Shown here one piece after another: positions 4,616-10,550 of a stretch of DNA of 10,550 bases; the stretch's first letter is position 1, and each line of letters opens with the position of its first letter. The stretch covers positions 1 to 10,550 of the forward strand of contig JAWCFL010000054.1 of NCBI GenBank assembly GCA_038858525.1, given 5' to 3'. Position numbers and translations under genes: made by a program. The notes beneath the pieces were generated by a model. That model was not told where the DNA came from, searched no databases, and was given only the letters and a program-made list of their open reading frames with translations. This stretch comes from Candidatus Jordarchaeales archaeon. Lineage in GTDB: Archaea; Asgardarchaeota; Jordiarchaeia; Jordiarchaeales; Freyrarchaeaceae.

Positions 4616-4948
4616 TTGGGAAAAGTGCGGTCAACCTACGTTAAAAGAATCGCGCGGCAAATCATGGCCAATTATGGAAACATGGTGACGGACAACTTCG
4701 AGGAGAACAAGAAACTCCTGAATGAAATGTTCGAGATAAAGTCGAAGAGGCTGCGCAACAAGGTTGCAGGCTACCTTGTCAGGCTAGTGAAGCTCGGACG
4801 CGAAGAATATGTGATCCCAACGGCAGAAGAAAGAAGAAGCGAGGAAGAATACGAAAGAGAAATACAGAAGTACGAGGAGGAAGCCGAAAAAGCAGGGATC
4901 ACCGAGGAAGCAGCCGAGGAAGAAGAGGGGGAAGAACAAGAAGTGTAG
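4616..4948 (+). CDS. rps17e: 30S ribosomal protein S17e with acidic C-terminal extension
   Basis: MGKVR...VKRIAR...NFEENKK...KSKRLRNKVAGY is the eS17 signature. About 50 extra Glu-rich residues follow. TTG start. Confidence 0.96.
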   Translation: MGKVRSTYVKRIARQIMANYGNMVTDNFEENKKLLNEMFEIKSKRLRNKVAGYLVRLVKLGREEYVIPTAEERRSEEEYEREIQKYEEEAEKAGITEEAAEEEEGEEQEV

Positions 4949-5442
4949 CGGAATGCAAGTGCCTTCACGGCTTTCATCTTCTTACCGCTTTGACTGTCCG
5001 CTGCCACCGGAAAAGAAGGTCACCTTGTTTATTACTGAATAATTGTTGTTTTATGTTATCGCCGCTGTCCCCTTACGGGTTTCCTTTAAGGTTCTTCGCC
5101 ACAACGGAATGGATGATGCATCATCATGCGTTTCGCAGTAGCACTTCAAGCGGCGGCTATCTAATTCATCTGATTGGGAGCTGCGTCTTCCATGCTCTCC
5201 TACCGGTTTGGCTTTCAGTTTGTTGCGCGTCGGGTGCAAGTTTTAAGCAAAATGAGAAAAATGCATTAAAAGAAGGTTAACTACTTGGAGTTGCTGACAG
5301 GTTTGTTACTGTAAACTTTGACGTATTTGTTCTAGCACGCTTTCTTCTCCATGTATTTAGACTTCGTGAAATTAAAAAATGGAATTATGTTGCTGCTTTT
5401 TTCTTTTCTGTGTTTTTGTGTCTTTACTTGTGTGACGTGCTG

Positions 5443-5754
5443 TCATGTGACGTCTATTTTTTCGGGGGAGAATCCGACGGATACGAGGAAATCTCTGGCC
5501 TTATACCTGTGATCCCCCTGCAGCTCTATGCGTCCCTCCTTGAATGTGCCGCCACACGCGCAGTGCGCCTTCAACTTTGCTGCCAGCTCCTCCAAGTTAA
5601 CCTCCCTGTTGTCTATGCCCTCTATTATGGTGACTTCTCTACCCCACTTTCTCTTCTCAACTCTCAACTTGACTCTCTGCTCCTCTTTACCGATCTCTTG
5701 GCACACACAAATGTCCTTAGGCAACCCACATACAGGGCATATTTGGTGCGCCAT
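5443..5754 (-). CDS. sui1: Translation initiation factor aIF1 (SUI1 family)
   Basis: N-terminal CPVCGLPKDICVC motif, then VTIIEG, CACGGT and IELQGDHR SUI1 motifs. ATG at 5754 is preferred; an alternative GTG lies at 5760. Confidence 0.96.
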   Translation of the reverse strand: MAHQICPVCGLPKDICVCQEIGKEEQRVKLRVEKRKWGREVTIIEGIDNREVNLEELAAKLKAHCACGGTFKEGRIELQGDHRYKARDFLVSVGFSPEKIDVT

Positions 5755-5854
5755 CAGCACATCATTCCCGTTTCCAACAAATTTTCCTTATTCCTTTAGG
5801 CGAGTAGGGGCGTTATTAATGTTGTGGTCTCCGCCGCACAGTTCGAGCCCTGGG

Positions 5855-6565
5855 CTACGTGCTCCTCCACGCTTCCTCGATCTCGCTGGCTGTCAGCTTC
5901 CTCAGCTTCTTATCTTCCTTCATTATTACTGCTACTTCGACTTGGTCCTGGCTGAGCTTGTCGACCGCGGCTCTAAGTGCCTTCAGGGCTAGCTTCACCC
6001 CCTCCGCGACTGTTACATTCCTCCTATACTCTTTCTCTAGGACCTCCATGGCTTTCTGCTCGTTCTCTCCTATGACGGCCGCCATGTAGCCTATAGCGGC
6101 GCCGCTAGTATCAAGAACCACGACTTCAGCTTCACCATCATCAGCGACCCCCCCTATTATGAGTGAGCAGCCGAAGGGCCTCACCCCCCCGAACTGCGTG
6201 TACTGCTGCATGGTGAGCGACAGCCGCCTAGCTACGTATGAGGGCTTAGCTCCCTCTCCATACGTCATCCTGTACCGCTGTGCGACCTGCCTTGCTAGGT
6301 CCGTTAGGACCCTCGAGTCGGACATGTAACCTGCGCCCACTATGCCTATATGCTCGTCGACCATCAGCACCTTCTCGTAGTCGTCAAGAAGCTTCTCATG
6401 CTTTCTCTTGACGCCTGCTAGGACGACACCGTCGGCAGCCCTCACCCCGACCGCTGGAGCCCCCCTTCTCACAGCGCTCTTAGAGTACTCGACTTGGAAT
6501 ATTCTTCCGTCAGGGGAGAACATGGCAATAGTCTTGTCGTACTCGGATATCTCTGGAAGTTCCAA
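5855..6565 (-). CDS. psmA: 20S proteasome alpha-type subunit, divergent (likely a paralogue)
   Basis: YDKTIAMFSPDGRIFQVEY is the alpha N-terminal signature, with YTQFGGVRPFG later. No N-terminal catalytic Thr. TTG start with GGTGA upstream. Confidence 0.9.
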   Translation of the reverse strand: MELPEISEYDKTIAMFSPDGRIFQVEYSKSAVRRGAPAVGVRAADGVVLAGVKRKHEKLLDDYEKVLMVDEHIGIVGAGYMSDSRVLTDLARQVAQRYRMTYGEGAKPSYVARRLSLTMQQYTQFGGVRPFGCSLIIGGVADDGEAEVVVLDTSGAAIGYMAAVIGENEQKAMEVLEKEYRRNVTVAEGVKLALKALRAAVDKLSQDQVEVAVIMKEDKKLRKLTASEIEEAWRST

Positions 6566-6596
6566 ACCCTCTCACCTTCGCCTCTCTACGATTTCT

Positions 6597-6700
6597 CTTA
6601 AGTCTTAAGGCTTAAAAGACTATCTGAGCTAAGAGAGGCGCTAACGGTTCAGCCGTGAAGAATGTAACATCGATGTAACACTAAAATATTTTTGATATAT
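6597..6700. promoter_or_regulatory. Divergent promoter region between psmA and the 484-aa gene, with short repeats
   Basis: CTTTTAAG on the minus strand (6611-6618), CTTAA at 7-bp period (6597, 6604, 6611), ATGTAACA direct repeat at 11-bp spacing (6662-6669, 6673-6680) and an AT-rich TATA-like stretch at 6682-6700. Confidence 0.45.
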
Positions 6701-6767
6701 GCTTTTGATGTCCTTTAGGGCTTTGGATTGTTTTCGCCTTCAGCTTCCCGCCGGGAAAGGTGGTGTT

Positions 6768-8222
6768 TTGAGGCTGTTTGAAGATTACGCGTGTTGCATC
6801 TGCAGGCAGAGGGAGGCCAGCTATTACTGCGAGTCGTGCTTCCTCACTTTTTGCTCCTCGTGCACGAAGAGGAAGAGCGTCAATTACTCAGCCTGCGAGA
6901 AGTGCGGCTCAGCTCACTACTTCGACGCAAAGTCAGGCCCCCCTAGCGTTTGCACCATGTGCGGCCACGAGTCGTTCAGGCTAGGCGTCAGGAAGCTCGT
7001 CGTCTGTCCCCGCTGCCTGTCGGAGAACGTTGTGGATTTAGTTAGGAAGAGGGAGGAACAAACCGCACGTCTCAACGCGATCACCCGCTCCCTTCTCTCC
7101 GCGTCGTCGCTGATGCTTAACGTTATTAACTCAGCCTCGAAGGCGAAGGCCCGCCTACTAAACCTGAGGAAAAAAGGCTTCCTTCACAACCCTCAACTTG
7201 AAGAGGATGTCTTAGGAGTCTACGAGGCGCTCTCCGCCCTCAAGGTCAAGGCTCTCTCGAAGGCGGAGAGAATAATGAGCAGCGCCGCCTCTAGAGCAGC
7301 TCTCCTTATCAGGGAATGGTCTCCTCGAAGCATCAGGGAAATAGAAGCTTGCTTCGAGCAGGTTGAGGGAGCGCTGAGAGACTACAGGCAGCTGGTAGAG
7401 GAGGAATGCAGATGTTTAGAGGAAAGACTGAGGGAGATCTCCTCAGTCCTAGACTACCTCGACTTTCACAGAGAGCTCTTTGAGGAACGTGAACAGCTCC
7501 TCGCCATGGAAGCTTCGGAGAAGCCTGTCTGCGCGCTCCCCCACGTAAAGTACGTCGGGAGCTCCTACCTTCCCTCGAACAAAGGGACAGGTGTACTCTT
7601 CCTCACAACAGAGAGGGTCGTCTTCTTGAAGAAAGAAGGAGTCCTGAGGCATTCCTTTAAGAAGTACTTTTCCCTCCCACTAGCTGAAGTCGAGCTAAAC
7701 GTTAAACGCGGCCTACGCGGCTACTTCACTCTTAAAACAGACAAGGGTACGGTGCGCTTCACCGCTCCACGCCAAGTCCTGGAGAACGTCGAAGCATACT
7801 TCACGCTCGCCAAAAACTTCCAAGCGAACTCTCAGTTAGACCGCTCCCTAACTCTTAAACTCGAAAGCACCGCTATAGGGCTAAGCGACTTCAGAAGGGC
7901 GATCGCCTCTCTAATAGACTCGACACTAAAGATGGGTGAGGAGGGCGCGAGAAGCACTGCTACCCCCAAGCAACGTCCTCCTCCAATCGCCCGCCCATGT
8001 CCACGTCCCATCAATCGTCCCGCTTCGCCCTCAACAGGAGACCAGGAAGCCCTCATGAACCTCGAAAAGAAGAAGTATGCTGTCGAGCAGAACCTCAAAA
8101 GGCTCAAGGAACTTTGGGATGAAGGCGAAATACCCCTAGAAGAGTACCTTAAAATGTCGAGGAGGCTTGAAAGCGACCTATACGAGTTAAACGTGAAAAT
8201 TCAGAAGCTGAAGAACGGGTAG
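6768..8222 (+). CDS. Multidomain protein: six CxxC Zn region + helical/coiled-coil + PH/GRAM/GLUE-like domain + Pro-rich linker + Vps23/TSG101-like steadiness box (ESCRT-I-like)
   Basis: Long ORF; the start is placed at TTG 6768 behind AGGTGGTG (the ORF track uses ATG 6699). CxxC pairs are CCIC, CESC, CSSC, CEKC, CTMC and CPRC. GVLFLTTERVVF...FSLPLAEV is PH-like. The C-terminal hairpin AVEQNLKRLKELWDEGEIPLEEYLKMSRRL aligns without gaps to the TSG101 core. Confidence in the CDS is high; domain calls are moderate. Confidence 0.75.
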   Translation: MRLFEDYACCICRQREASYYCESCFLTFCSSCTKRKSVNYSACEKCGSAHYFDAKSGPPSVCTMCGHESFRLGVRKLVVCPRCLSENVVDLVRKREEQTARLNAITRSLLSASSLMLNVINSASKAKARLLNLRKKGFLHNPQLEEDVLGVYEALSALKVKALSKAERIMSSAASRAALLIREWSPRSIREIEACFEQVEGALRDYRQLVEEECRCLEERLREISSVLDYLDFHRELFEEREQLLAMEASEKPVCALPHVKYVGSSYLPSNKGTGVLFLTTERVVFLKKEGVLRHSFKKYFSLPLAEVELNVKRGLRGYFTLKTDKGTVRFTAPRQVLENVEAYFTLAKNFQANSQLDRSLTLKLESTAIGLSDFRRAIASLIDSTLKMGEEGARSTATPKQRPPPIARPCPRPINRPASPSTGDQEALMNLEKKKYAVEQNLKRLKELWDEGEIPLEEYLKMSRRLESDLYELNVKIQKLKNG

Positions 8223-8233
8223 ATTCAGCTGAC

Positions 8234-8248
8234 AGACTTAACAAGTCT
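8234..8248. terminator. Small hairpin between convergent genes, possible terminator element
   Basis: AGACTT-AAC-AAGTCT inverted repeat 12 nt after the stop of the plus-strand gene. Confidence 0.2.
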
Positions 8249-8321
8249 TACCACGTTTCCCCTCTACCAGTCGAAGCGGCGAGAGACGCCACACCTTCCA
8301 ATTGAAACGTTTCCGCCCCGT

Positions 8322-8957
8322 TTACTCTTTTTCTCCCGTCTTTTCCTCTTCTTCGTCAAGCTCTCTTCTGGCTTTTTCCAGCTCCTCTAGGAGTTGGCTC
8401 TTCTCCGGTACTGGTGTCTCTGAAGGCACCTCTGGCTCTTTGACTCCCTCAAGCGCTATCTCCGCCTCAAGCCTATCAAGCTCGGCTGAAACGTCTATCC
8501 CCTCCATGCCCGTGCTCAATGGAGACGAGAGCAGCTCACCGCTCCTGTCTATTTCCTCCATCATCTGCTCGTGCCGCACCGTCATCTCCATTATGTCGTC
8601 CGAGCTTGCAAGCTTCATGGCGCTCTCCATAAGCTTACCCGCAGCCTCAACGCTCTCCTTAACCTGAACTATGTCATGGGCCTGCTCTATAGCGAAGAGG
8701 CGTGCCTCAAGGTTCTCTATGAACCCCGCATACCTGTTGAGCGCGCCAAGGTAAAAGTGGTATCTTCTCAGGGCGAGCTCAGCCCCCTTCCTGTTCCCTG
8801 CTTTAAGGTAAGCCTTAGCGGTCTCTCTAGCCCTCGCAGCCTGTTGCTCGTACCTCTTCGACTTCACGATCAAACTATTAATGGTAGCCCTTATCTCGCT
8901 GATCGCCTGATCCTTCGTCTTGGGCTTCTTGCCAAACAACTTATCCTTAAAGCTCAT
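8322..8957 (-). CDS. ESCRT-III subunit, Snf7/Vps20/Vps32 (CHMP4/6-like) class
   Basis: 211 aa with an amphipathic N-terminus MSFKDKLFG, a basic helical hairpin (AKAYLKAGNRKGAELALRR), an acidic C-terminal half, D(V)SAELDRLEAE helix 5 and a Pro-rich EPEVPSETPVP MIM2-like motif. Confidence 0.88.
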   Translation of the reverse strand: MSFKDKLFGKKPKTKDQAISEIRATINSLIVKSKRYEQQAARARETAKAYLKAGNRKGAELALRRYHFYLGALNRYAGFIENLEARLFAIEQAHDIVQVKESVEAAGKLMESAMKLASSDDIMEMTVRHEQMMEEIDRSGELLSSPLSTGMEGIDVSAELDRLEAEIALEGVKEPEVPSETPVPEKSQLLEELEKARRELDEEEEKTGEKE

Positions 8958-8966
8958 CCGGAAGCG

Positions 8967-9040
8967 CCTCCCTCAACACTAGAATGCACGCCGCAAGTTA
9001 TTAAACCTCTCCCTTAAGGCATCAAGCTTAAGGCATCAAG
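8967..9040 (-). promoter_or_regulatory. ESCRT-III promoter: SD, TATA and an upstream 14-bp tandem repeat
   Basis: GGAGG (minus strand, 8967-8971), TTTAATAA (minus strand, 8998-9005) and CTTAAGGCATCAAG twice (9013-9026, 9027-9040). Confidence 0.55.
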
Positions 9041-9219
9041 CCCACAGCACCCACCAGCAGCTCCCAGAGTGGCGCCGCGAAACAGTCCCTAAATAAAAAC
9101 CCGCCTGGTTTAGCAGGGGTAGCCTTCAGAACACATGAAATAGAATCGCAATAGCGTTCCCCCTAAAGGCTGACGGCTCATCCGAGAGAAATCCAACGAC
9201 GAACCACCACGCAACCGCT

Positions 9220-9245
9220 AAAAAACCAAACTGAAAGGAAAAAAA
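9220..9245 (-). terminator. Oligo-T terminator of the HerA-like gene
   Basis: T7 and T6 tracts on the minus strand (plus-strand A runs 9239-9245 and 9220-9225) just after the stop at 9257. Confidence 0.5.
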
Positions 9246-9256
9246 TCGCACCCATT

Positions 9257-10549
9257 TCACCTTTGCAGTGCTCTCTTAAGCTCCTCTATTTTTCTGAACG
9301 CCTTCCTCTTAAGGAAGAGGTATTCCTCTTCAGTCATCCTACCAAGCGAATAGTACTCGTGGAGGCTCTGAAGGTACTTCTGGATCCGCTGGATCTTGGC
9401 TGCCGCCTCCTCCGGCGAGATAGCCTCCTCAGCCCCCCCAACCTTTCCCTCCTCCACCTTCACCTCCTCTCCAGCCTCCTTCACCTCCTCTCCAGCCTCC
9501 TTCACCTCCTCAACTCTCCCCTCCTTCTCAGGGAGTCTCTTCTCGGGCTTCCGCCTTGATGGGGGAGGCGCCCACTCAGCAACTCCAGCCTCACGCAGAG
9601 TGCTCTCTAAGGCGTCCTTCACCTTCGCTGCGGCATCCCTACTTGAGGCTGCTACCTCCACGGCGACCAGCGTAGCGTCGCCGCCCAGCGCCAAGGCTAC
9701 AGCCAGCTTTACGTCGCTCCTCTCCGCTATTACCACAAGCTCCTCTCCACTATGCTCTGACAGGGTCCACCCCTGAGCCTTCAGCGTTTCCTTTAACTTG
9801 CCCAGAACCTTTCCGGGGCTCGCCTTTACAGCTATCTGTAAACCCGTGGTCTCCACTCTTGGCGACTGGTAGATATACTCGTAGAACCTATACTTTACAA
9901 GTCTCGAAAGATAGTCGAGTGCCAAGTCTTGTGGAGCATCGATGACAGCCAACGCCGGCTCCTCAACGAGAGCCACACTGCTAATGGACGACGCTACCGC
10001 TGGGGCTTCCCTTGCTTGCTCAACAGTTTCTCCTACCGCTGGGGCTTCCTCAGTAACGCCCTCCTCTTTTTCCGTCTTCAAGCGGGGTGTTACCTCCCTC
10101 CCTGCATGCCTGCTCAGCCGGGGCCTAACCTTAACTGCGAAGGTTCTCCCCGTCTCCACCGTCCCGTCAGAGACGAGCGCGACACCAGCCGGGAGCTTGC
10201 GCACGGCGTCACCTGCGAGCTCACCTGGAACAGTGTTTGGCGCCCTCCTAGTGAACGCTTCTATGTCTAACTCGAAGACGAGCCGGTGCGCTAAGACCAC
10301 GTCCACCTGTGACAGGACTTGGTCACTGGTGGCTGATGGTTGCTGCGTCGCCAGAACTAAGGCGCAGCCCGGCATCCTTCCAAGCTTCGCGTACTCTATT
10401 AGCGGCTTCGATGCTGCAGTTTCGCCTTTCGCCGGAACTAGGACGTGTGCCTCATCCACCATTAGCCACGTGACGGGAATGTCGCCCCCCTCTACTCCCC
10501 CCGCTTTCTCAGCCCTCGCCTGCTTCATCCTCCTCTCCAGTATCCTCCT
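9257..10549 (-). CDS. HerA/FtsK/VirB4-superfamily P-loop ATPase (DUF87-like) with C-terminal extension; 5'-truncated by window edge
   Basis: The frame is open to the window edge (RRILERRMKQ...). It has Walker B WLMVDEAH, KLGRMPGCALVLATQQPS and VLSQVDVVLAHRL, typical of HerA-like ATPases. Walker A lies outside the window. Confidence 0.85.
   Translation of the reverse strand, partial: RRILERRMKQARAEKAGGVEGGDIPVTWLMVDEAHVLVPAKGETAASKPLIEYAKLGRMPGCALVLATQQPSATSDQVLSQVDVVLAHRLVFELDIEAFTRRAPNTVPGELAGDAVRKLPAGVALVSDGTVETGRTFAVKVRPRLSRHAGREVTPRLKTEKEEGVTEEAPAVGETVEQAREAPAVASSISSVALVEEPALAVIDAPQDLALDYLSRLVKYRFYEYIYQSPRVETTGLQIAVKASPGKVLGKLKETLKAQGWTLSEHSGEELVVIAERSDVKLAVALALGGDATLVAVEVAASSRDAAAKVKDALESTLREAGVAEWAPPPSRRKPEKRLPEKEGRVEEVKEAGEEVKEAGEEVKVEEGKVGGAEEAISPEEAAAKIQRIQKYLQSLHEYYSLGRMTEEEYLFLKRKAFRKIEELKRALQR
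9457..9511. repeat. In-frame 21-bp tandem repeat (2.6 copies) encoding EEVKEAG
   Basis: CCTTCACCTCCTCTCCAGCCT at 9457-9477 and 9478-9498, with a partial copy at 9499-9511. Confidence 0.92.
9994..10049. repeat. 17-bp direct repeat encoding EAPAV twice in a linker
   Basis: CTACCGCTGGGGCTTCC at 9994-10010 and 10033-10049 (offset 39 nt, in frame). Confidence 0.85.
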
Positions 10550-10550
10550 C

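Follow-up and report, generated by a model that had tools for sequence, protein, structure and literature searches.

Gene content of the ESCRT-III locus

The window analyzed in this study, a stretch of 10,550 bp, corresponds to the entire contig C54 (JAWCFL010000054.1) of a Candidatus Jordarchaeales archaeon assembly (GCA_038858525.1; 2.09 Mb, 63 contigs, 92.7% complete). [quoted passage not shown] An earlier note on this DNA had recognized the same three adjacent genes, and we confirmed their positions, their strands, and the open end of the third one.

The 418-kb contig of assembly GCA_038866325.1 (locus L005; L-numbers indicate fetched loci, G-numbers genomes, and f-numbers sampled Asgard families) is 100% identical to positions 4904 to 10550 of the window, over 5647 bp, and therefore offers a safe view past the contig end. 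In L005, a second Snf7 gene, encoding 203 residues, lies 5 bp upstream of the complete ATPase gene, and the same arrangement occurs in five other assemblies with an identical adaptor. The 203-residue protein belongs to the Vps2/24/46 class, with matches to CHMP1a, CHMP1b, and CHMP3, the best being those to CHMP1a and CHMP1b. Its gene is missing from the 63 contigs of the assembly considered here and is found in L005 just past the position that matches the end of C54. Both ESCRT-III classes thus belong to the locus and flank the ATPase, and the lack of a second class, to which the earlier note had drawn attention, turned out to be an artefact of contig truncation.

Conservation of the gene order among Asgard archaea

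The 956-residue ATPase was searched against 400 Asgard genomes, and the flanks of about 50 Asgard loci were fetched and scored with the ESCRT proteins of the window and with ESCRT-III hidden Markov models (HMMs) built from the hits. Strong orthologues of the ATPase were found in many Asgard families. In particular, an ESCRT-III gene of the Vps2/24/46 class, the ATPase gene, and an ESCRT-III gene of the Vps20/32/60 class follow each other on one strand in f1 and f2 (Jordarchaeum/Freyarchaeota), f26 (records labelled Hodarchaeota or Promethearchaeota), f16 (Helarchaeota Hel_GB_B), f15, f32, and f33. In most loci, the upstream ESCRT-III gene and the ATPase gene are separated by between -4 and about 110 bp, and, in a metagenomic relative, the start of the ATPase gene overlaps the stop of a Snf7 gene by 4 bp. 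In the Heimdall-labelled family f13, only the downstream ESCRT-III gene (Vps20/32/60 class) is present at five of the nine loci, 1.2 to 2.9 kb away. The linkage between a HerA-like ATPase and ESCRT-III is therefore broader than the window by itself had indicated.

The surroundings of the locus have been reshuffled repeatedly, with Vps4-Vps25 near (directly adjacent to the ESCRT-III and ATPase genes in several families) or far, the adaptor adjacent or not, and an extra gene for a protein of 345 residues in some loci; moreover, the ATPases of different linked families share 33 to 41% identity overall. The persistence of the order amid these rearrangements and at such a degree of sequence divergence is the main argument for a functional association.

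In a maximum-likelihood tree, all of the Asgard ATPases form one clade (Shimodaira-Hasegawa-like approximate likelihood-ratio test support, 99), sister to Thermoplasmatota; the Thorarchaeal sequences are placed on a long internal branch, and every Asgard branch is ESCRT linked except that of the Thorarchaeia and four loci of the Heimdall clade. The ATPase hence belongs to an Asgard-specific clade and, in many families, is encoded codirectionally between the two ESCRT-III classes. Orthologues unlinked to ESCRT-III were observed in Thorarchaeia (f31) and f30 and, outside Asgard archaea, in the sampled relatives from Methanofastidiosa, Theionarchaea, Hadarchaeota, Thermoplasmatota, and several DPANN groups. 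At the 60 unlinked loci, no Snf7 HMM hit was seen nearby. Furthermore, the non-Asgard and Thorarchaeal relatives have no partner gene in common, and their neighbours are lineage specific (EMC6-like, transglutaminase, TPR, and housekeeping genes), with neither NurA nor ESCRT-III among them. The simplest reading of the tree would be one early Asgard linkage, which Thorarchaeia later lost. The N-terminal helical domain of the ATPase occurs in every linked orthologue and is missing from the unlinked Thorarchaeal and f30 orthologues; this correlation counts as one correlated change and not as many independent ones.

Some further observations concern single loci. An apparent 1169-residue fusion of ESCRT-III and ATPase in L062 proved to be a scaffold gap read as X and was discarded. 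Loci L086 (DATKTP010000243.1) and L109 (DATKZI010000013.1), of the Asgard ESCRT/HerA-like type, are titled Candidatus Deferrimicrobium sp. and Candidatus Bathyarchaeia, respectively, which are probably taxonomic mislabels. An all-helical protein of about 345 to 390 residues with no Pfam match (L081:8071-9108, plus strand; G298:C138:64201-65202; L029:12171-13328, minus strand) is encoded directly downstream of the HerA-like gene in f2 and f26 and, in f28, where the locus has no HerA-like gene, between the two ESCRT-III genes. It was detected in 14 of the 400 Asgard genomes at an E value of ≤1e-8, is absent from the genome considered here, and may be another accessory of the ESCRT-III operon.

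The HerA-like ATPase

The complete ATPase comprises, in this order, an N-terminal helical domain (residues 10 to 233), a HAS-barrel and RecA-like core, a disordered linker, an alpha/beta domain (733 to 847), a second disordered linker, and a helical hairpin (905 to 955). That the third gene is HerA-like, as previously proposed, is borne out by both profile and fold, since the protein scores 52.6 bits against Pfam DUF87 (cut-off, 23.2) and its AlphaFold2 (AF2) model, with a mean predicted local distance difference test (pLDDT) value of 84, aligns in VIA with HerA of S. solfataricus (4d2i) with a Z score of 33.4 and a root-mean-square deviation of 3.9 over 344 residues, spanning model residues 236 to 686 (Foldseek, 2.5e-16). 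The next structural relatives by VIA are DndH (Z, 27.1), VirB4, TrwB, and EccC (Z, 15 to 26), and FtsK (2ius; Z, 18.6). The N-terminal domain of the model resembles part of an (alpha/alpha)6 toroid (Z, 11 to 13), a value which for helical repeats is only suggestive; together with the HerA core, this domain took up the hits of the search with the whole model. ESM Atlas searches with the N-terminal and C-terminal parts of the protein gave no usable match.

The Walker A stretch G-Q-R-G-S-G-K-S is found at residue 303 and the Walker B stretch W-L-M-V-D-E at residues 554 to 559; among the 25 orthologues of alignment A3, G303, R305, and G306 to S310 of the former and D558 and E559 of the latter are invariant. 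In the window, the minus strand of 10088 to 10549 encodes residues 527 to 680, i.e., the C-terminal part of the core with Walker B, while the N-terminal domain and the remaining part of the core fall outside C54. The alpha/beta domain (9587 to 9931) is modelled with a block-mean pLDDT of 78 to 93 over most of its length; its coverage is 0.93 to 1.0 in all 25 aligned orthologues, and it is present in all members of the Asgard clade. The linker that follows (residues 856 to 900; 9428 to 9562) is rich in Pro, Glu, and Lys, has a pLDDT below 50, and varies in sequence between genera, and the tail (residues 905 to 955; 9263 to 9415) is modelled as two helices, 905 to 927 and 933 to 955, with a steadiness-box-like pattern. 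The sole hydrophobic peak of the protein (1.81, at residue 808) falls within the beta strands of the alpha/beta domain. We consider the ATPase a soluble protein of the HerA superfamily and a probable hexamer.

Two better-known roles of HerA proteins were examined and set aside. As a canonical HerA-NurA repair helicase, the ATPase falls far below the cut-offs of the NCBIfam HerA equivalogs (53.7 and 49.9 bits versus 800 and 970), NurA was not found in the Pfam-annotated flanks of 10 loci, and a separate HerA of 498 residues is encoded on contig C34 of the same genome. As an anti-phage HerA of the Sir2-HerA or DUF4297-HerA kind, it scores 36 bits versus an equivalog cut-off of 850, and its neighbours are ESCRT-III genes, with no effector alongside; PADLOC returned generic HerA and mad8 matches (1e-13 to 1e-20).

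ESCRT-III genes and other ESCRT components

The ESCRT-III protein encoded in the window (211 residues) belongs to the Vps20/32/60 (Snf7/CHMP4-like) class and matches Pfam Snf7 with 68.1 bits (cut-off, 27.3; E value, 9.5e-19) over positions 1 to 170 of the 171 of the profile, in agreement with its earlier description as a Snf7-type ESCRT-III. Its best solved relatives are the Heimdall ESCRT-IIIB structure 9ftl (2.2e-12), the Vps20/32/60-like structure 9fn1, and yeast Snf7, and a Pro-rich stretch occurs near its C terminus. The spacer between this gene and that of the ATPase (8958 to 9256, minus strand) measures 299 bp, compared to 51 to 117 bp in sister genera. It contains T-tracts right after the ATPase stop codon, one terminator-like hairpin (9117 to 9100), and, some 35 bp ahead of the ESCRT-III start, a TATA-like box rich in A/T; the length of the spacer, together with its T-tracts and TATA-like box, suggests that the ESCRT-III gene may be transcribed on its own in this species. 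In the sister assembly L013, a 63-residue open reading frame (ORF) is called inside a spacer of 260 bp. In L040 (10789 to 11657), from genome G114 of the same genus, two ORFs (117 and 171 residues) stand side by side in place of a single Vps20/32/60-class gene, perhaps owing to a frameshift or a partial duplication, and L026 (closed genome G116, f2) shows an extra ESCRT-III-like fragment of 80 residues (10817 to 11059) and about 1.9 kb (11059 to 12949) between the adaptor and ESCRT-III genes.

The remaining ESCRT components were located elsewhere in the genome. A gene for Vps4, with MIT, AAA, and Vps4_C domains, is followed by that of Vps25 on contig C21, and contig C3 carries an operon for a Vps23-like protein (UEV-Vps23), Vps28, and Vps22. 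The earlier observation that neither Vps4 nor ESCRT-II accompanies the Snf7 gene of the window thus holds within this genome but not for the sister lineages, in which Vps4-Vps25 is adjacent. Rather than the noncanonical module that had been put forward, the region appears as a normal ESCRT-III/adaptor locus into which a HerA-like gene has been inserted and from which Vps4-Vps25 has moved away.

The adaptor is a member of the Znr_CC_PH_SB family

The adaptor comprises 484 residues, counted from the ATG common to all of the homologues, and displays the domain arrangement of the Asgard Znr_CC_PH_SB family (cog.011556), named by Makarova et al. 2024 (PMC10936438). Three Cys4 zinc ribbons (residues 1 to 90; 6768 to 7037, plus strand, as for the whole gene) are recognizable by their Cys residues and by beta-hairpin elements in the AF2 model (mean pLDDT, 87.8); C9, C12, C21, C24, C29, C32, C43, C46, C62, C65, C80, and C83 are invariant among the 22 homologues of alignment A4. 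Long antiparallel helices (91 to 108, 111 to 135, 142 to 182, and 186 to 240) form a coiled coil (residues 91 to 245; 7038 to 7502), followed by a PH-like beta sandwich with a C-terminal helix (residues 253 to 349; 7524 to 7814; strands within 253 to 332, helix 335 to 349). Foldseek matches of the model include DH/PH tandems, dynamin, and the PH-like domain of Lam6 (E values, 3e-6 to 3e-4). After a disordered linker, the protein ends with a steadiness-box-type helical hairpin (residues 423 to 483; 8034 to 8216), modelled with a block-mean pLDDT of 77 to 97.

When searched alone against Pfam, the 75-residue tail piece matched Vps23_core (9.8e-4) and CdvA (4.9e-4); among 20 tails of the adaptor family, 14 matched Vps23_core (best, 2.7e-7) and 6 matched CdvA. 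Judged by these profile matches, the adaptor clearly ends in a steadiness box. In the same genome, an HMM derived from the tails of the adaptor family retrieved the box of the Vps23-like protein (1.1e-13), the N terminus of Vps28 (7.5e-3), and four more hairpin proteins. The 2.1-Mb genome (G000) therefore holds six further steadiness-box-type hairpins, in the Vps23-like protein, in Vps28, and in four proteins of other architectures (C3:107719-108480, C17:38987-39325, C1:140904-141653, C62:10-1335, C3:107023-107709, and C3:113308-114507), in keeping with reports that steadiness-box fusions have spread among Asgard archaea.

The adaptor was proposed as something new, but by its domain architecture it belongs to a published family and is an ordinary member of the Asgard ESCRT cluster. 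A word-indexed protein search had found 6 relatives, and the resulting impression of a narrow family was overturned by the six-frame search of the 400 Asgard genomes, which revealed relatives in 313 of them. In most of the sampled loci, the adaptor adjoins ESCRT-III, with the layout Vps25-Vps4, two ESCRT-III genes, and adaptor. In f20, the largest sampled family, the homologues were detected with E values of 1e-21 to 1e-33 and have open frames of about 490 to 730 residues, mostly 660 to 730; the members listed by Makarova et al. 2024 (PMC10936438) include a 650-residue protein of Lokiarchaeum GC14_75. The same authors proposed Znr_CC_PH_SB as a likely ancestral ESCRT-I component of Asgard archaea.

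The C-terminal helical hairpins of the adaptor and of the ATPase

According to the earlier note, the adaptor and the ATPase end in similar hairpins, by which the two proteins would pair. Both of the tail sequences quoted there are present, and AF2 models both as helical hairpins behind disordered linkers; that of the ATPase spans about 50 residues with a block-mean pLDDT of 84 to 96. The two share the pattern helix, G-x-[I/M]-x-x-E-[E/D]-Y, helix. Their Smith-Waterman score is 53, versus 26.5 ± 4.9 for shuffled sequences (0 of 5000 shuffles reach 53) and 27 to 35 for other helical segments of the locus, and hhalign aligned ATPase tails with adaptor tails in register over 39 columns with an E value of 5.7e-4, albeit with a probability of 29.5%. 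A likeness at the level of pattern, beyond composition, is thus real. However, no steadiness box is detectable in the ATPase tail: at an E value of ≤1, none of 11 ATPase tails matched Pfam Vps23_core, CdvA, or Mod_r, and a steadiness-box HMM derived from the genome hit the ATPase tail with an E value of 3.4 (rank 24 of 8102 ORFs), compared to 1e-13 to 0.03 for six other boxes. In the reciprocal search with an ATPase-tail HMM, the Vps23-like box ranked 9th (E value, 2.5). It is plausible that the ATPase tail is a distant relative of the steadiness box, and the signals of such a kinship are suggestive and not significant. A complex prediction for the adaptor and ATPase tails, run with both as alignments and no controls, gave a best score of 0.10 against a mark of 0.32 and is counted neither for nor against pairing. 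The last residues of the ATPase tail were also inspected by eye for a MIM1-like motif, which was discarded because Leu and Arg are not suitably spaced.

Within Jordarchaeia, the last 60 residues of the ATPase are 50 to 88% identical across f1 and f2, and the preceding linker is not conserved. The f2 tails share 57 to 65% identity with that of the window, compared to 53 to 54% for the core and 23 to 27% for the other domains. By these identities, the tail is the best-conserved segment of the protein between the two Jordarchaeial families, which points to strong constraint. It was found only in Jordarchaeia and in one metagenomic orthologue, which is again preceded by Snf7, and it is missing from the ESCRT-linked ATPases of the Hod-, Hel-, and Heimdall-labelled lineages and of f15, f32, and f33. 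Since the tail is absent from these other linked lineages, it is not a general coupling device, and the pairing of hairpin with hairpin fails as a general explanation of a gene linkage that exists elsewhere without the tail.

Genomic setting of contig C54

The left part of C54 carries, in order, a TnpB/IS605 fragment and the genes for ribosomal protein L40e, a CBS-domain protein, CDC48, ribosomal protein S17e, SUI1, and proteasome alpha. Because these flanking genes are housekeeping ones, the setting of the locus is chromosomal rather than that of a mobile element. The fragment at the edge of the contig (3 to 665, plus strand) derives from TnpB/IS605 OrfB and matches the Cas12f1-like TNB domain (4e-18). 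Sister assemblies break at the same IS605 place or hold a full TnpB copy of 385 to 390 residues, so the insertion sequence probably caused the assembly break. The G+C content of C54 (0.536) is the highest among the 63 contigs, the others ranging from 0.415 to 0.518 (0.428 for C21, the contig of Vps4-Vps25). Mis-binning of C54 is unlikely, given that sister assemblies hold the same locus on contigs of 418 to 436 kb.

Possible function of the ATPase

We read the region as the core ESCRT-III locus of an Asgard archaeon akin to Candidatus Jordarchaeum; the interpretation that we favour, and to which we give roughly an even chance, is that the ATPase of this locus is a working partner of ESCRT-III, most likely a DNA pump. 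The locus consists of four genes, for a membrane-and-cargo adaptor of the Znr_CC_PH_SB family, two ESCRT-III paralogues, and, between the latter, a 956-residue ring ATPase of the HerA superfamily, which may serve the ESCRT-III machinery as its partner motor. It is possible to hypothesize that the hexameric pump clears or moves DNA through a membrane neck constricted by ESCRT-III, similarly to FtsK at the bacterial septum, or, in a variant of the model, that it loads DNA into ESCRT-made vesicles. A DNA substrate is preferred because the nearest structural relatives of the ATPase are DNA translocases; taken alone, a role on DNA is tentative, being possible but appreciably short of an even chance. 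As for the contacts, the ATPase of Jordarchaeia may have gained its flexible linker and conserved hairpin as a tether to a partner, plausibly a steadiness-box protein such as the adaptor, Vps23, or Vps28, and in the other lineages a better candidate for the contact would be the helical domain at the N terminus, which is confined to orthologues linked to ESCRT. In its most specific form, the proposal would be that of an ancestral Asgard pump of the HerA type, encoded in the ESCRT-III operon as an archaeal analogue of FtsK and moving chromosomal or cargo DNA at the neck severed by ESCRT-III, which we regard as somewhat unlikely.

Several observations speak against a general partnership of this kind or against DNA as the substrate. 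An ATPase relative at an E value of ≤1e-10 occurs in only 3 of the 135 genomes of f20, a family that makes up a third of those sampled, and Thorarchaeia keep the ATPase apart from the ESCRT genes; therefore, ESCRT function in Asgard archaea does not in general require the ATPase. The functional link between ATPase and ESCRT-III is read from gene order, and since related genomes are not independent of each other, a single ancestral linkage may have been kept partly by inertia. As to the substrate, VirB4 and EccC, of the same superfamily, handle proteins. The ATPase also has no membrane anchor and no FtsK gamma domain (Pfam FtsK_SpoIIIE against the full protein, E value of 0.11).

Three other explanations deserve consideration. 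That both tails are steadiness boxes, which pair in the fashion of ESCRT-I, recruit ESCRT-III, and couple it to the translocase, as the earlier note envisaged, would agree with two confident hairpins on flexible linkers, with their pairwise score above that of shuffles and their in-register hhalign alignment, with the weak reciprocal HMM signals, and with the strong constraint on the ATPase tail; in addition, Makarova et al. 2024 (PMC10936438) point out that proteins with a steadiness box, in many different architectures, may dock on ESCRT-I. We consider this model unlikely, given the low hhalign probability, the contrast between no ATPase tail and 14 of 20 adaptor tails matching Vps23_core, and the E value of 3.4 from an HMM that recovers six other boxes far more strongly; with the tail missing in other ESCRT-linked lineages, it could at best describe a lineage-specific add-on. 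Alternatively, the ATPase could act on protein, either as a second motor that remodels or unfolds ESCRT-III polymers or as an export or coupling ATPase of the VirB4/EccC type that passes cargo into ESCRT-made buds. In eukaryotes, the Vps2/24/46 class of ESCRT-III is the one that engages the disassembly ATPase, and it is the gene of this class to which the ATPase gene is tightly coupled; the fold class includes the protein-handling VirB4, TrwB, and EccC, and the N-terminal helical and C-terminal alpha/beta domains look like partner-binding modules. Such an activity seems improbable nonetheless, as HerA and DndH, the closest structural relatives, are DNA translocases, Vps4 is already available in these genomes for the disassembly of ESCRT-III, and the loci contain no partner that would form a membrane channel.

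Finally, the neighbourhood could be inherited and nonfunctional, with the ATPase doing an unrelated job in DNA repair, defence, or another process and its position being a frozen accident. The absence of ESCRT-III neighbours and of any common partner among the non-Asgard and Thorarchaeal relatives would be expected in this case, the generic HerA and mad8 matches of PADLOC would be in line with it, and all of the linked lineages could stem from one event. On the other hand, order, strand, and short gaps have persisted through many reshufflings among ATPases that have diverged to the extent reported above, the linked orthologues possess a domain that the unlinked ones lack, and the scores with the defence and repair models lie far under their cut-offs, so that we hold a frozen accident, too, to be improbable.

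Relevance and comparison with known systems

The adaptor and ESCRT-III genes were already known, and the new element seems to be the order ESCRT-III, HerA-like ATPase, ESCRT-III, found in at least seven Asgard families. Among the papers available to our literature search, none links a HerA/DUF87 ATPase to ESCRT-III in Asgard archaea. The accessible portions of Hatano et al. 2022 (PMC9192718) and Makarova et al. 2024 (PMC10936438) make no mention of such an ATPase in Asgard ESCRT loci, where it may be tabulated without comment, and the Lokiarchaeum and LC_3 ESCRT loci tabulated in the accessible part of the latter paper include no HerA-like gene. The rarity of the ATPase in f20 may explain why it went unremarked.

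Whether ESCRT in Asgard archaea serves division, the budding of vesicles, or sorting directed by ubiquitin is an open question that bears on eukaryogenesis. Asgard archaea also carry FtsZ, and few of them are culturable. The position that a HerA-type ATPase keeps between ESCRT-III genes in at least seven families hints at a second motor alongside the membrane-cutting machinery, and its occurrence in Jord-, Hod-, Hel-, and Heimdall-labelled lineages provides a concrete, testable handle on the role of ESCRT. If the motor moves DNA, it would point to division or to DNA-bearing vesicles and would revive an idea of 2004, when Iyer and colleagues reportedly put HerA forward as the equivalent of FtsK in archaea; if the motor works on protein, it would be a new component of the ESCRT-III cycle. 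Should the ancestral DNA pump prove true, Asgard ESCRT-III would be tied to cell division or to DNA-carrying vesicles, beyond eukaryote-like protein sorting.

The closest known system is the Asgard ubiquitin-ESCRT cluster (Hatano et al. 2022, PMC9192718; Makarova et al. 2024, PMC10936438), with which this genome shares the two ESCRT-III paralogues, one of the Vps2/24/46 class and one of the Vps20/32/60 class, a Znr_CC_PH_SB gene convergent with the ESCRT-III genes, the codirected Vps4-Vps25 pair, and the second operon of UEV-Vps23, Vps28, and Vps22. Different from that cluster, a 956-residue HerA-like ATPase gene is here found between the two ESCRT-III genes, and, in this lineage, Vps4-Vps25 has moved to another contig. 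The adaptor itself does not differ notably from Znr_CC_PH_SB, with which it shares the three zinc ribbons, the coiled coil, the PH domain, the C-terminal steadiness box, and the place beside ESCRT-III, and of which it is a short member. Thermoproteota, in their CdvA-CdvB-CdvC division operon, likewise encode beside ESCRT-III a recruiter that binds the membrane and has a hairpin of the CdvA/steadiness-box type; in contrast to that recruiter, the adaptor of the window has zinc ribbons and a PH domain and no PRC barrel, and the extra ATPase at the Asgard locus is of the HerA type, on top of Vps4/CdvC.

With HerA of the HerA-NurA end-resection machine, the Asgard ATPase has in common the HAS-barrel and RecA-like core, the Walker A and B motifs, the probable hexameric state, and the close structural match to 4d2i, but it lacks NurA, Mre11, or Rad50 neighbours and possesses an additional (alpha/alpha)-toroid-like domain at the N terminus, as well as the C-terminal alpha/beta domain and the hairpin tail. 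With FtsK at the bacterial division septum, it shares the ATPase superfamily and a gene tied to a membrane-constriction machinery; different from FtsK, it is devoid of a transmembrane anchor and of the gamma domain, and its partner would be ESCRT-III instead of FtsZ.

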